This document shows, piece after piece, positions 13,487 through 17,302 of a stretch of 64,000 nucleotides of DNA. The position numbers were made by a program, and so were the translations under genes. Where the stretch lies: positions 128,001-192,000 of IMG/VR virus record IMGVR_UViG_3300045988_179014. One strand, written 5' to 3'. The notes under the pieces are model-generated. The model worked only from the letters and a program-made list of their open reading frames with translations. It was not told the DNA's origin and did not search any database. Each line of letters starts with the position of its first letter. Position 1 is the first letter of the stretch. This DNA comes from a virus.

Positions 13487-14512
13487 TCACAATCCATGCT
13501 TTAGTAAATATTTGTTGTTGATGATTTTAAAATTCCTATTAACATCAAGCCATTCTGGTAGTGTTGCTGTGGAATCATCTACCAAATGGAACACAATGCC
13601 TTCATCGAGCAGGCCATTGGTAATCTGTCCACGAAGCGTTGAGACTTTTTCAATCATCTCATCCAAATCCCCGGTTGGGGCCCATTCATCACCCAAAACA
13701 GGGACAGAGCACTTGTTGAAAACATCATCCCAATCAGCATGAGGAACTTTGACTGAATTCTCCCATATGGCAAACACGAATGGACGCAAATGCTCAAGCT
13801 TTAGCCGATTCCCATTAAATTTTGGTCCGGCCAGCTCAAATTGCACAGCCATACCAGGATATTGCTTAATGGCATCTACAAGACCAAATTGCTCAGCCAC
13901 TTGGAACCCTGCAACATCCTTTGACGTTTCCCAATTCCGACTGAAAATCCGGATATTTTCTCCATCGTTTAACAAGGTTTGAGAAGACCCATCTACCTTA
14001 ACTGTCGGGACCCATTTCATTTCTTTGATTAAGTCCCAATATTCCGAAAGAGTTTGCACCCGAATAGCATCCGTTTTCGGAGCCCATTTGGTATCAAACC
14101 GGCCAATGATGTTCCCATTCTGAGGTAGCTGTTCCTCCCATTTATAAACACCTACCATATCTGTCACATCTGTTCCAACGGGGAGAGAAGCATCCAATCC
14201 AAGTTCTTCCAGGGACATAAGCAAACCCTGAGAGACTACGCCCCTCAGTTTACGGGTACGCAGAACATGTCCTTTGACTGTTGTGCCATTGACTACAACA
14301 CTTTTCTGCTTATGAGTTTGAAACGATTCAAAATGTGGATTGGTTTCTGGTAGTAATGTATCCGTCTCAAAATACACAGCTTTCATGCCAGGCCGGAACG
14401 TGTTTTTACGAACAACCACCTTCCAACCCAACACATGTGCTGTCTCAATTTGGTCAGCATTGTCAATAGTCTCTATTGCTTTTACTGTCTGAATAGTTGC
14501 CAGCTTCCTCAT
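13487..14512 (-). CDS. ATP-dependent RNA ligase, DraRnl/Rnl5-like (N-terminal OB-like domain + nucleotidyltransferase)
   Basis: Motif I KVDGSS with the lysine at about residue 172 of 341, same size and layout as DraRnl. Downstream motifs IRIFSRN and FAIWENS. Confidence 0.65.
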   Translation of the reverse strand: MRKLATIQTVKAIETIDNADQIETAHVLGWKVVVRKNTFRPGMKAVYFETDTLLPETNPHFESFQTHKQKSVVVNGTTVKGHVLRTRKLRGVVSQGLLMSLEELGLDASLPVGTDVTDMVGVYKWEEQLPQNGNIIGRFDTKWAPKTDAIRVQTLSEYWDLIKEMKWVPTVKVDGSSQTLLNDGENIRIFSRNWETSKDVAGFQVAEQFGLVDAIKQYPGMAVQFELAGPKFNGNRLKLEHLRPFVFAIWENSVKVPHADWDDVFNKCSVPVLGDEWAPTGDLDEMIEKVSTLRGQITNGLLDEGIVFHLVDDSTATLPEWLDVNRNFKIINNKYLLKHGL

Positions 14513-14558
14513 TTTTTATCCTATCCTATAATCTAATGCTAATACAGTATAAACTATT

Positions 14559-15038
14559 TTATTCAATTACTACAATACCCAATCTGCTCAATGCTTCACA
14601 TAATCGTTCAATATGTGTAGAGTAACGCTCAATCAAACGAGCAGGGGGATTATTGGACAAATTGACTTTCATGTCTGCATATTTGACAGAAAGTGCTATT
14701 GTGCTATTTGAACGAATCAACCGGTCAATGTATGCAGAATAAGTTTCTTCGTTCTTCCGACTATCCATTAGCAACACATCAATCAGGTCAGGAAAATCCA
14801 GCCTGATTCTCTCCTCGTATTCTGGATGGTCTTCTATAACATCATGTAACCATGCTGCCGCTTCCACCAATGGCGAGTTTGACAACTTTCTTGCTTCATG
14901 AGCAGTCAAAGCCAGATGAGTCGTATATGGAAATTCTCCCCACTTGTCTTTTGCGTGTGCTTCTGAGGCCAACAAAATAGCCTTTTCAACCATGTCTTTT
15001 GAATCCATATTACCCCCTGTATATTCTTTGCTACACAA
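14559..15038 (-). CDS. HD-domain phosphohydrolase
   Basis: H...HD signature (THLALTAHEA ... WLHDVIEDHPE). Probable start at internal MDSKDMVEK. Confidence 0.7.
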   Translation of the reverse strand: MCSKEYTGGNMDSKDMVEKAILLASEAHAKDKWGEFPYTTHLALTAHEARKLSNSPLVEAAAWLHDVIEDHPEYEERIRLDFPDLIDVLLMDSRKNEETYSAYIDRLIRSNSTIALSVKYADMKVNLSNNPPARLIERYSTHIERLCEALSRLGIVVIE

Positions 15039-15108
15039 TAAGACAATTACTTGCTGATTGAAACAGGAATCATTAATTCATAATTCCTGTACATTCTCAA
15101 AACTGCTT

Positions 15109-15651
15109 TCATTGACTTATTTCTTCCATAGCTTGGTACAAAGCGACTTGTAGTCGGTTTTCTCGCTGCGGTTTGAAAACAGTCGGAATTTTAGGGTATG
15201 AAAAACCCACCTCTTCCGGGGTATGGTTACCCTTTCTCCCATTACAGGACAAACAGGCAACACAGAGGTTACCCCAAGTATTTAAACCACCTCGGGATTT
15301 CGGGATAATGTGGTCAATGGTATCACCATATTCATGACAATACTGGCAAGTCCAATTATCTCGAATCAAAATCATGTTTTTGGATACCGTGGTGTCCATA
15401 TTCACTTTTTTAATTCGACCACGAGGGACATAGCGATTTAGCCCGATAACTAGCGGACGGGCCATGGAAAAATGTTGGCTCCGTACCATGGAACCATCTG
15501 CACGGGGAATCAAAACATATGCATCATGGCTCAACACCATTGTGGTAGCTCGCATCCACGAAATAGTGTTCATCACAGTCATGGAGGTATCCACAACTGC
15601 AACACGATTTTCCCCGATTTCTTTTTCCAAGATACTTATATGTTCCATCAT
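15109..15651 (-). CDS. HNH endonuclease
   Basis: [41 protein letters not shown] (HNH with Zn-binding Cys pairs). Confidence 0.8.
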   Translation of the reverse strand: [180 protein letters not shown]

Positions 15652-15718
15652 GGTCTCTTTCTGACTTGCTTTTCCCTTCTAGCGCGTCGCTTCTGTATCC
15701 TATCCAGTCATACTTATA

Positions 15719-17302
15719 CTACTTCTTTTGTGTTGCTCTCCACATCTCACGACTTGCATCCCGTCGTGAAATGTCTTCACCTTTCAGTCTAGCATCCAAG
15801 AACTGGAAAAGTAAACTCCTGTCCGCATCAAACGTAGCTACTCTCTTCGCAAATTCCCGTTTGACGCTATTGGCATCACTTTGCAAGTCTTTTTCAGGTA
15901 GTTCGTCTATTATCTTTTTAGCTTTAGCAACCGCGTGTGCTCTGGCGAGAACAGTATTCTGGTAGTATTCCAGCCGTTGTTTTGTGGTGTACTCAGCCCA
16001 ACTGCCTTTCTCCACATCGTCTGGGATGGTTGCTTTCAACTCGGGAATACTTAACACATCTCCGCTTTTAGCAATCCCCATCAAATCAGCATATGTAAGT
16101 TTGATGCCTTGAATAGTTTTTCGTGCCGCGTCTTTTGAAAACACAGTACGCATTTTATGCAGTTTCAAATAATCCTCTTGTTTGATTTTTACTTGCATCT
16201 GTTTCTTGGGGTCATCAGAAATAATACGAATCACCATACCTTCACGGTTTTCACGGTCAGGTAATTTCAACGCTTCATTCAATGTTTTTGCAGGTAGTGT
16301 TTCAGCGGTATTCAATCCTTTTGCTTTGCTCCAAATATTTGTATAATCCGATGTTGACTCGTACAAACCAGTATTCTTTTGTACTGCCCCAATCATGGAA
16401 ATGTCCACTTTATTGTATGAAAGCACAATTTGATTCTTGCCAGGACCTACACCTTCGAAAAGAAATGTTGTATCACTATGCTCTTGCAACAAGCGTTCTG
16501 CCGCGTTACGGAATTTTTCTTCCTGTTGCAGCATTTGAGTGAATTGAATAGCTTGTTCAGATTTGAAACTTCCTTTTGTCGCTACTGCTGGATTTCCTTT
16601 CGGGTCACGATACAGAATCAACATCGAACCATCCATTTTGTCTGTGACTTCAGCAGGAGCATCAAAATCCAATTTTGACAAATCAATACTTGGAATTTGT
16701 GGTGCTTCATCTTCATCATCACCCAACATCCAATGCGGCGTCATGTTCCCATCCGACCATCCTGATTCCATTTGACTCAATGTGAAAAACTTGGCCCATG
16801 GTCGTTGAAGGATGTAAGCATCACTGAAATCATCTTGACTACTACGAATCATGAGTCCACGAGCAGTCTTGGTGGCATCATTCCATTTGCCCTCCATTTG
16901 TGCTCGTTTTCCATAGCAAAGAACAATCATGTCGGAGTCATCAGGATGTTGACTGGTAAGAATGTATTCGTGGTCTACCATATCTTTGAGCAGTTCTACA
17001 TCCATGATTTCACTCAATGCAGGCCCCATGTCACTGCGACGATTGGTTCGTAAAGGACGCAACAAGGAACCTTTCATCATGGCTTCATAAGCTTGTCGCG
17101 CTTCACCATGACTGTCAAAATGGTCATCTGGAGCTAAACCAAAAGGACACCCACGAACCCCAGTACTGTGACATACCCCAGTGGCACCTGTTTCTGGATT
17201 GATGTGAATTTTGCCAACCATATGACGACTCCTAAATAACGAAGAAACTTCATGCATATTCTCTAATAATGAAGAACTATTGTTGAATAAATTGTATCCC
17301 AC
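15719..17302 (-). CDS. Rnl1-family RNA ligase with about 230-aa N-terminal extension carrying a CxxxxxxGCPxG motif (probable start ATG 17221, TAGGAGT SD)
   Basis: Motif I KMDGSM. FLFEGVG / GMVIRI (motifs III/IV). Motif V QVKIKQEDY (compare T4 Rnl1 HFKIKSDWY). N-terminus INPETGATGVCHSTGVRGCPFG. Confidence 0.7.
   Translation of the reverse strand: MGYNLFNNSSSLLENMHEVSSLFRSRHMVGKIHINPETGATGVCHSTGVRGCPFGLAPDDHFDSHGEARQAYEAMMKGSLLRPLRTNRRSDMGPALSEIMDVELLKDMVDHEYILTSQHPDDSDMIVLCYGKRAQMEGKWNDATKTARGLMIRSSQDDFSDAYILQRPWAKFFTLSQMESGWSDGNMTPHWMLGDDEDEAPQIPSIDLSKLDFDAPAEVTDKMDGSMLILYRDPKGNPAVATKGSFKSEQAIQFTQMLQQEEKFRNAAERLLQEHSDTTFLFEGVGPGKNQIVLSYNKVDISMIGAVQKNTGLYESTSDYTNIWSKAKGLNTAETLPAKTLNEALKLPDRENREGMVIRIISDDPKKQMQVKIKQEDYLKLHKMRTVFSKDAARKTIQGIKLTYADLMGIAKSGDVLSIPELKATIPDDVEKGSWAEYTTKQRLEYYQNTVLARAHAVAKAKKIIDELPEKDLQSDANSVKREFAKRVATFDADRSLLFQFLDARLKGEDISRRDASREMWRATQKK

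Follow-up and report, generated by a model that had tools for sequence, protein, structure and literature searches.

Two RNA ligases, a predicted small alarmone hydrolase and an HNH nuclease within 3.8 kb of a large uncultivated phage: a possible RNA-damage-reversal toolkit

Positions 13487-17302 of the DNA stretch analysed here (64,000 nucleotides from IMG/VR virus record IMGVR_UViG_3300045988_179014, positions 128,001 to 192,000 of that record; hereafter, the window) enclose exactly four intact open reading frames (ORFs), all on the (-) strand in the ORF list of the 64-kb window. They encode RNA ligases of the Rnl5 and Rnl1 families, separated by a predicted small alarmone hydrolase (SAH) and an HNH endonuclease. 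We consider it about an even bet, with a probability of roughly 0.5, that these genes make up a loose RNA-damage-reversal toolkit rather than an obligate operon, in which two ligases would be accompanied by an SAH that takes 3′-pyrophosphate off alarmones and/or tRNA ends, with the HNH gene as a passenger. The original prediction, made from the sequence alone, had placed the four genes at these coordinates and the ligases about 1.2 kb apart, and both points hold (the gap is 1,206 bp). The features of the locus are as follows, with protein lengths in amino acids (aa).

15719..17221, (-) strand: Rnl1-family ATP-dependent RNA ligase, long form, 500 aa; the mechanical ORF extends to GTG 17302
17081..17221, (-) strand: HCCH module, the N-terminal 47 aa of the Rnl1-like ligase, with conserved His/Cys residues
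15109..15651, (-) strand: HNH endonuclease, 180 aa, with an HNH_5 match; the N-terminal ~85 aa are uncharacterised
14559..15008, (-) strand: predicted SAH (RelA/SpoT-type HD pyrophosphohydrolase), 149 aa, recognised by phrog_990, fold and residues
13487..14512, (-) strand: Rnl5-family (DraRnl/NgrRnl-type) nick-sealing RNA ligase, 341 aa, with an OB fold and a nucleotidyltransferase domain

The ORF of the HD protein spans 14559-15038, and its likely start is ATG 15008, which gives 149 aa. Its sequence matches phrog_990 (6.7e-21), the (p)ppApp hydrolase of PDB entry 7smg (4e-4) and the SAH/RelH entries 7qoe and 7qoc. The Pfam HD_4 model gives only 19.2 bits, under the gathering cut-off of 27.2, and a more distant SAH homologue, from a locus that we label L133, passes the same model with 46.4 bits; the window SAH is best regarded as a member of a divergent subfamily. 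Residues H41, H65-D66, E69-D70, D122 and N126 are invariant in 32 homologues (alignment A1) and presumably correspond to Mesh1 H35/H61/D62/E65/D66/D122/N126. The AlphaFold2 (AF2) model, with a pLDDT of 91.7, aligns in Foldseek to 7smg with TM scores of 0.73/0.80, and the 13 matches at E <= 0.001 are all SAHs or Mesh1, with the hydrolase domains of Rel/SpoT following at weaker E, to ~0.1. We conclude from sequence and model that the HD protein is a RelA/SpoT-type SAH predicted to retain all metal-binding and catalytic residues. A generic HD protein or an end-healing enzyme of the HD-Pnk type was ruled out, given that every significant sequence and fold match was an RSH hydrolase. The original prediction had cast this protein as an end-healing HD phosphohydrolase: it is indeed an HD enzyme, but one of the RelA/SpoT type, and since that prediction itself took activity restricted to (p)ppGpp or dNTP hydrolysis as speaking against end-healing, the latter step is weakened.

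The documented chemistry of the SAH family is the removal of 3′-pyrophosphate from (p)ppGpp/(p)ppApp, an activity that some SAHs also have on tRNA CCA ends; to our knowledge, healing of 2′,3′-cyclic phosphates has not been documented for the family. By analogy with these relatives, the window SAH would remove 3′-pyrophosphate groups. Its targets could be (p)ppGpp/(p)ppApp arising from host stress or from toxic alarmone synthetases, tRNA CCA ends to which defence toxins of the CapRel/FaRel2 type have added pyrophosphate, or both, and removal would regenerate a usable 3′-OH. For instance, MESH1 and ATfaRel strip pyrophosphate from tRNA CCA ends and restore aminoacylation, an activity that the authors compare to the 3′-phosphatase of T4 Pnk (bioRxiv 10.1101/2021.04.30.441581), and PaSpo, the SAH of Salmonella phage SSU5, neutralises toxSAS toxins (PMC9712102).

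The ligase encoded next to the SAH matches PF21189 (PHA02142 OB-fold, 2.5e-24, residues 4-100), PF09414 (RNA_ligase, 3.6e-8, residues 166-312) and phrog_968 (1.8e-50). It consists of an N-terminal OB domain and a C-terminal adenylyltransferase domain, with no further domain, and its 341 aa compare with 339-342 in the prototypes; against TIGR02306, it scores 2.6e-27 with 95.6 bits, under the equivalog cut-off of 151. In phmmer, it aligns to Naegleria gruberi NgrRnl (5cot, 3.3e-37) over 1-251 and the motif V region, with its KVDGSS on the KLDGSS of NgrRnl (K170), so that the KVDGSS motif and N-terminal OB domain described for it earlier are borne out. Residues K124, R151, K172, D174, G175, E226, E304, G305 and K329 are invariant (alignment A3), and the catalytic counterparts K121, R149, K170, D172, E227, E312 and K326 of NgrRnl, as given in PDB mutant names, are matched. 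From what is known of the family, this enzyme would seal 3′-OH/5′-phosphate nicks in duplex RNA or RNA:DNA in which the 3′-OH strand ends in ribonucleotides. Sealing of 3′-OH/5′-PO4 nicks by Rnl5-family enzymes needs ribonucleotides on the 3′-OH side, and the physiological role of the family has been called “uncharted” (PMC5397189). Residues 70-123 of the OB domain give weak matches to tRNA_bind (0.0039), the PheT beta-subunit (5e-6) and YtpR (0.025); these tRNA-binding-domain matches, far below the cut-offs, are compatible with a putative tRNA-directed role. The Rnl5-like gene of Arthrobacter phage Racecar lies within a cluster of tRNA genes. In L018 (13432-14142 of a 149-kb viral contig), the alignment shows the Rnl5-like gene adjacent to an SAH gene to be cut short or broken after motif I, and an insertion may have split it.

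The second ligase matches PF09511 (RNA_lig_T4_1, 5e-12) and phrog_562 (1.3e-45), and its Pfam score of 46.6 bits exceeds the cut-off of 28.3. Its match to TIGR02308 (1.8e-17, 63.5 bits) is below the equivalog cut-off of 242.25, and the protein can be classed as a family member by Pfam, yet not as a T4 RnlA equivalog. In phmmer, it finds T4 Rnl1 (2c5u) at 2.7e-7, and its KMDGS, FEGVGP, EGMVI and VKIK align to T4 motifs I, III, IV and V (in T4, KEDGS with K99, FEFVAP, EGYVA and FKIK). The K, D and G of motif I are invariant in family alignments of 24 and 59 sequences, as are E283, E354, G355, K372 and K374 in the family alignment, which we take to be the equivalents of T4 E159, E227-G228, K240 and K242. 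Upstream of motif I, R148-G149-L150 and P168..K171-F172 are also invariant, close to where the Pfam and TIGR02308 matches begin (146-147), and these Rnl1-specific N-terminal elements presumably correspond to T4 R54, K75 and F77. The AF2 model (pLDDT 88) begins at T38, not M28, and therefore lacks 10 residues at the start of the HCCH module, its first His among them; the best Foldseek match of the model is again T4 Rnl1 2c5u (E 1.5e-16 over 438 columns), followed by the ligase domain of fungal Trl1. Residues 339-488, in the C-terminal domain, are helical in this model; sequence similarity to T4 Rnl1 is undetectable in that domain. The family assignments of the original prediction, including that of the KMDGSM...VKIK ligase, are thus confirmed, and the alignments to T4 Rnl1 and NgrRnl show complete sets of catalytic motifs in both enzymes. 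By family knowledge, the Rnl1-like enzyme would seal 3′-OH/5′-phosphate breaks in tRNA-type stem-loops.

What does not hold is the N-terminal extension of 230 aa that had been attributed to the Rnl1-like ligase. Its start is most likely ATG 17221 (M28), with AGGAG 8 nt upstream and relatives starting there, which makes the protein 500 rather than 527 aa long. In T4 Rnl1, 98 residues precede the lysine, and with the short relatives P0082 and P0085 the alignment sets in at residue ~105 (527-aa numbering). What is really additional is the 47-aa module with a ~25-aa disordered linker (~70-77 aa from M28) and an acidic loop of ~20-25 aa before motif I; the remainder is mostly the normal Rnl1 N-terminal subdomain. 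A kinase or phosphatase hidden in the supposed extension was ruled out: Pfam and NCBIfam give no match, and the model consists of the 47-aa module, a disordered linker and a canonical Rnl1 fold. The long-form protein has ~80 relatives that are 35-49% identical to it over most of its length. Relatives of ~480-500 aa share 40-49% identity with it, and the contigs that carry several of the ~80 measure 183-727 kb.

Among phages, RNA repair has reached the textbooks only for T4, in which Pnkp and Rnl1 counteract PrrC. No P-loop kinase had been noticed at the locus, and, as regards Pnkp or polynucleotide kinases, this is true of the four-gene segment and of the whole window: a Walker-A/DxDxT scan combined with Pfam found no Pnkp-like kinase/phosphatase in the 64 kb. 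The Walker-A proteins in the window are DnaB, RecA, an SbcC-like protein, a T2SSE ATPase and PhoH, and the MoxR-like AAA+ ATPase at 9067-10269 was found by Pfam but missed by the Walker-A scan. Since there is no kinase or classical 3′-phosphatase nearby, the ligases would act directly only on 3′-OH/5′-phosphate breaks, that is, on ready-to-seal ends such as those left by metal-dependent nucleases. Alternatively, healing enzymes may be encoded in the ~125 kb outside the window.

Spelled out in full, the model of the original prediction would be a complete heal-and-seal pathway like that of T4, in which the SAH would replace the Pnkp phosphatase on the 3′-phosphate or 2′,3′-cyclic phosphate of cut tRNA, a kinase would be encoded elsewhere and either ligase would seal. 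No SAH is known to open 2′,3′-cyclic phosphates, there is no kinase within the 64-kb window, and true Pnkp is paired with 69/80 cellular Rnl1 genes and SAH with none. Moreover, the clusters in Pseudomonas phages and L133 hold a separate phosphoesterase (Metallophos_2 and HAD_SAK_2, respectively), so that healing need not fall to the SAH. In its favour, Mesh1-type enzymes act on ribose 2′/3′ phosphates (NADPH and PAPS complexes are among the Foldseek matches), and Kurata et al. propose a Pnk-like 3′-phosphatase role for RSH hydrolases (bioRxiv 10.1101/2021.04.30.441581). In Pakpunavirus, a ligase-adjacent kinase without a phosphatase domain lies 2 kb from an SAH-like HD gene, a P-loop kinase directly follows the SAH in L133, and L006, a relative from the same clade, has a Zeta_toxin/AAA_33 kinase ~8 kb from its Rnl1-like gene. 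Taken together, we regard this model as unlikely.

Support for the toolkit reading comes from beyond the clade. In L140 (3442-9026 of a 22-kb viral contig), the order is Band7/SPFH...Rnl1-like (356 aa)-RlaP-Pnkp (AAA_33 + HAD_PNKP)-Rnl5L (Rnl1L and Rnl5L are used here for the Rnl1-like and Rnl5-like ligases of the window and its relatives). Both ligase families thus flank end-processing genes within 3.7 kb, and L140 is a textbook modular RNA-repair system with both ligase families. L133 has the order SAH-(HCCH)kinase...HAD_SAK_2-Rnl5L. When distant SAH loci were scanned for RNA ligases by profile hidden Markov models (HMMs), a ligase was found within 8 kb in 8 of 78, and in 6 of those 8 it was of the Rnl1 family, on the same strand and 0.25-2 kb downstream (3 are Pfam-confirmed); in L026, L067/068, L082 and L087, it follows the SAH by 0.25-1 kb, and in L022 by ~2 kb. 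Among cultured phages, the Pseudomonas phages PAK_P1 and UNO-G1W1 have a cluster of an SAH-like HD protein, a calcineurin-like phosphoesterase, an RNA ligase and an AAA_33 kinase. The cluster ligase is PF09511-confirmed in PAK_P1 only, that of UNO-G1W1 being annotated as such with zero Pfam matches, and elsewhere PAK_P1 carries an Rnl5-family ligase (9e-64) and an annotated Pnkp. The recurrence of SAH-like genes beside RNA ligases or end-healing enzymes in several unrelated phage lineages, including the cultured Pakpunavirus, supports a putative RNA-repair context, and because such neighbourhoods recur, a repair-linked role for the SAH stays alive.

Several observations weigh against this reading. 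The 8 of 78 loci are few, an SAH lies within 8 kb in only 3 of 79 Rnl5 loci, and both are raw counts without a matched background frequency, so that any enrichment of RNA ligases near SAH genes is suggestive and not proven. Among 80 cellular Rnl1 loci (L176-L254, genome contigs), neither an SAH nor an Rnl5 ligase was found beside Rnl1 in any, and a T4-type Pnkp lies directly downstream in 69, often overlapping. Within the clade, the proximity of SAH and Rnl5L could be explained by shared ancestry alone. The published reading of phage SAHs is alarmone modulation, not RNA repair (PMC12846349). The four genes are flanked by replication and recombination genes, namely RecA, DnaB, SSB and the clamp, and, because of these flanks and the DNA-repair phenotype in Deinococcus, where a DraRnl knockout delays genome reassembly (PMC5397189), the Rnl5-like enzyme may serve DNA transactions. 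Lastly, the four genes are not kept as a unit, as the following gene orders in relatives illustrate.

L002: DUF7455-Rnl1L-HNH-Trx4-x-DUF2201-RecA-MoxR-DnaB
L004/L006: MoxR-DUF2201-Rnl1L-Trx4-sugar and TAGT DNA-modification genes
L093-096: Rnl1L-HNH-1000 aa-Trx4-Rnl5L-VWA-RecA-MoxR, with SAH absent
L089, L174: SAH-Rnl5L-DUF2201
L090, L172: SAH-(1-3 genes)-Rnl5L-DUF2201, with L090 lacking Rnl1L
L091: SAH near a PF09414 ligase, in a different context

Rnl1L is missing in L090, SAH in L093-096 and HNH in L004/L006. In relatives, Rnl1-HNH and SAH-Rnl5 are separate pairs 4-10 kb apart, with a thioredoxin-like gene and a DNA-modification block separating Rnl1L(-HNH) from SAH/Rnl5L, and DUF2201 is directly downstream of Rnl5L in every clade member that has Rnl5L (Rnl5L-DUF2201(-RecA-MoxR) in L089, L090, L093, L172 and L174). 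A conserved four-gene cassette is ruled out by this synteny; the 3.8-kb arrangement appears to be a lineage-specific juxtaposition of two older neighbourhoods, Rnl1L-HNH and SAH-Rnl5L-DUF2201. Of the repair cassette originally proposed, then, the RNA/tRNA-repair reading is still reasonable and the cassette itself is not, since the genes are not conserved as one. A search for a universal Rnl5 partner by neighbour clustering likewise yielded none that was general, the result being dominated by near-identical lineages and spurious ORFs.

The HNH gene, foreseen between the ligases and indeed present there, is intact: its protein matches HNH_5 (1.3e-12), HNH (1.1e-10) and HNH_4 at residues 102-150 and phrog_16726 at 1.6e-23, and the CxxC...DH...N...CxxC motif is complete. 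An orthologue follows Rnl1L in L002 and L093-096, occurs in L090 without Rnl1L and is absent between Rnl1L and Trx4 in L004/L006. Because it is present or absent among relatives, we consider the nuclease a probable facultative passenger.

These gene orders also bear on whether the genes stand together by chance. In that case, the SAH would manipulate host alarmone signalling (the stringent response, (p)ppApp toxins), the Rnl5-like enzyme would seal replication or recombination nicks with 3′-ribonucleotides, the Rnl1-like enzyme would repair tRNA alone, and the HNH nuclease would be selfish or DNA-directed. Relatives that hold the genes apart or lack individual members fit this alternative, as do the neighbours (which include MoxR/VWA besides those named above), the delayed genome reassembly of the DraRnl knockout and the interpretation of phage SAHs as alarmone hydrolases (PMC7824862, PMC12846349). 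Co-orientation is uninformative, since nearly all genes of the 64-kb window share a strand, and a promoter/terminator scan of the region found sites no commoner than in shuffled sequence and nothing that delimits an operon. On the other side, at least four unrelated lineages have SAH-like genes beside RNA ligases and enzymes that heal RNA ends. The immediate neighbour of Rnl5L is Pnkp in L140 and HAD_SAK_2 in L133, and the one cluster of L140 has RlaP and Pnkp between its Rnl1-like and Rnl5-like genes. We consider a chance juxtaposition less likely than the toolkit but more likely than the remaining alternatives.

The DUF2201 gene that recurs in these neighbourhoods lies directly beyond Rnl5L in the window as well.

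11766..13361, (-) strand: DUF2201 metallopeptidase-VWA protein, a context gene (PF13203 2e-18, PF09967 3.8e-8)

It is very improbable that the Rnl1-like protein is mainly a virion-assembly factor that attaches tail fibres, as T4 gp63 does, together with the MoxR/DUF2201-VWA chaperone pair. No catalytic residue of the ligase varies within the family, and the HCCH module is common to kinases, phosphoesterases, exoribonucleases and ADP-ribosyltransferases, not to structural proteins. We know of no demonstration of the dual function of gp63 outside T4, which also counts against this role. The name of phrog_562, “RNA ligase and tail fiber protein attachment catalyst”, does favour it, and Rnl1L adjoins DUF2201-MoxR in L004/L006, a MoxR-vWA pair that has been predicted to act as a chaperone when virions are assembled (Iyer et al. 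2021, PMC7824862).

Turning to known systems, T4 itself carries Rnl1 and Rnl2. In jumbo phages, RNA ligases occur in any combination, and an “HD-alarmone PDease” is found as well (Iyer et al. 2021, PMC7824862); the Pakpunavirus Adele has an SAH, a kinase lacking the 3′-phosphatase domain and two distinct RNA ligases (PMC12846349). With these phages and PAK_P1 in mind, the co-occurrence of two RNA ligase families cannot be called unusual, as had been suggested. The component set is already known, two RNA ligases and an SAH in one phage having been published, and it is more dispersed elsewhere; what differs here is the compaction into 3.8 kb, the SAH in place of an absent Pnkp and the HCCH-tagged long-form Rnl1.

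The individual proteins differ from their prototypes to varying degrees. The Rnl1-like ligase shares with T4 Rnl1 (gp63) the nucleotidyltransferase motifs, the Rnl1-specific upstream elements, a helical C-terminal domain and its being phage-encoded, but it has 500 aa against 374 in T4, ~20% identity, an additional HCCH module and acidic loop, a score below the TIGR02308 cut-off and no Pnkp in the window. Like DraRnl and NgrRnl, the Rnl5-like ligase has two domains (OB and nucleotidyltransferase), ~340 aa and conserved catalytic residues; unlike them, it is a phage copy that falls below the TIGR02306 cut-off. The SAH has the single-domain RSH fold and the H..HD..ED..D..N signature of known SAHs (7smg from B. 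caccae, Mesh1, ATfaRel from C. marina and PaSpo from SSU5, the last a phage-encoded precedent), but it is only 19-24% identical to any solved SAH, shorter at 149 aa and in a separate metagenomic subfamily whose members adjoin Rnl5-type ligases. As for whole gene sets, Pakpunavirus and Otagovirus (PAK_P1, Adele and UNO-G1W1) likewise combine Rnl1-family and Rnl5-family ligases with an SAH-like HD protein in one genome, and in PAK_P1 the latter is 2 kb from the Rnl1-family ligase. In contrast to the window, their Rnl5-type ligase is ~50 kb away, they have a polynucleotide kinase, a calcineurin-like phosphoesterase and a full Pnkp, they have neither an HNH gene between the others nor an HCCH module, and their hosts are Proteobacteria. 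The modular RNA-repair systems of Burroughs and Aravind reportedly combine a ligase with RlaP, Pnkp and Band-7/SPFH; compared with L140, which is of this type, HNH and SAH replace RlaP and Pnkp between the window ligases, and a Band-7 scaffold was not found.

The module at the N-terminus of the Rnl1-like ligase follows the pattern H-x10-11-C-x6-8-C-x7-10-H and then an amphipathic helix, with H6, G12, C17, C25, H34 and A41 invariant (alignment A6). It is covered by no model in Pfam or NCBIfam. When 1.84 billion representatives were searched with a profile, 5,423 matched at E<=1e-3 and 1,847 at E<=1e-10, almost always at residues 1-47 and in proteins of 52-486 aa, and a tblastn search of cultured phages with the consensus gave none at the sensitivity of that program. 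The majority of the best 150 matches have no Pfam domain; the partners found in the others of these 150 are ADP-ribosyltransferase, HD, HD_4, HD_5, Zeta/AAA_33 kinase, 2H-SAK phosphoesterase, RNase_T, 3′-5′ exoribonuclease, RNA ligase, GNAT and GmrSD. The window holds a second copy at 22080-22220 (-), similar to the Rnl1L N-terminus in BLASTP (2.4e-7), at the head of the following ORF, whose product gives zero PHROG or Pfam matches beyond the module.

20928..22220, (-) strand: second HCCH-headed protein, 430 aa (module HMM 1.3e-17 at residues 8-56)

The module also heads ~270-aa proteins between SAH and Rnl5L in L090 (8450-9367) and L172 (2968-4598), and it occurs in L006 at 7408-8004, in the gene upstream of Rnl1L, and in L133 at 2403-3443, in the kinase. 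The Pfam DUF7455 model does not match it, which rules out a copy of DUF7455 (the small gene that precedes Rnl1L in L002). From the company it keeps, the module appears to be a promiscuous tag of enzymes that act in conflict or process RNA ends. Thousands of unannotated proteins carry it, some of them fused to such enzymes, and it could provide a handle for counter-defence genes in huge phages.

One could go further and suppose, at long odds, that the SAH subfamily comprises RNA-end repair enzymes that take the 3′-(pyro)phosphate off tRNA or RNA ends and hand the 3′-OH to the adjacent Rnl5 or Rnl1 ligase, independently of Pnkp and against toxSAS-type and related defences, with HCCH as an undescribed targeting or adaptor domain that gathers RNA-end-processing and conflict enzymes on a common substrate or scaffold in huge phages. 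With defined proteins from the locus and its relatives, two questions become open to test, namely the action of SAHs on RNA ends alongside ligases and the role of Rnl5 in phages. If SAHs do work on RNA ends beside ligases, two themes of defence and counter-defence would be linked, tRNA cleavage and tRNA pyrophosphorylation; if none of these readings holds, the locus is another large-phage RNA-repair gene set.

With regard to the genomic setting, a 97%-identical relative sits on an IMG/VR contig of 188,933 bp, from which we take the phage genome to be ~190 kb, and the four genes head a leftward gene run within the replication/recombination region of this uncultivated phage. The window has a G+C content of ~41%, its genes are almost exclusively on the (-) strand, and no tRNA genes were found in its 64 kb, which also counts against the toolkit reading. 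The nearest genome match is a contig in a Coriobacteriales metagenome-assembled genome, and the host is probably an actinobacterium. Megablast of the 13487-17302 region against 50,697 phage records and an exact look-up of the Rnl1-like protein each gave zero matches. Most other large ORFs of the window have no PHROG or Pfam match, and the phage is therefore poorly related to cultured phages.

Some further observations concern the surroundings. The MoxR-like AAA+ ATPase (9067-10269, (-) strand), RecA (10426-11571, (-) strand) and DUF2201-VWA (11766-13361, (-) strand) make up a block whose order recurs throughout the clade; the DUF2201-VWA protein has a long low-complexity linker rich in Ser/Gly/Asn/Gln/Asp (~residues 175-275), and some relatives, such as L090, have two DUF2201 paralogues, one on each side of the ligase region. 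The cellular Rnl1 loci mentioned above are mostly from Actinomycetota (Dactylosporangium, Nocardia, Streptomyces and Micromonospora), and 7 of them also have RlaP. On the other side of the ligase genes, a ParB-like gene with PHROG matches only (17378-18013) is the sole (+)-strand gene nearby, and the best promoter-like site of the region (17345-17373) lies at this gene. It converges with a gene for a Bax1-I/YccA-like membrane protein (18246-18926, (-) strand), and a bidirectional terminator-like hairpin with a 16-bp stem is found between the two at 18185-18223. Another nuclease-type gene, the second in this neighbourhood and ~5 kb from the four genes, is at 22371-24056 (-); its 561-aa product matches homing-endonuclease PHROGs (phrog_3339, 2.3e-70) and, weakly, the MTES_1575 restriction-endonuclease domain. 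Farther away, 46052-47296, 47366-49654 and 52792-53697, all on the (-) strand, encode a T2SSE-type secretion ATPase (1.8e-26), an SbcC/Rad50-like ATPase and a sigma-70 region-2 protein. Near the end of the window, 62664-63926 (-) encodes a fusion of a PIN domain and a PhoH-like ATPase (PIN_4 1.4e-7, PhoH 6.4e-44), a predicted RNase-ATPase that may possibly represent another RNA-directed function of the phage.

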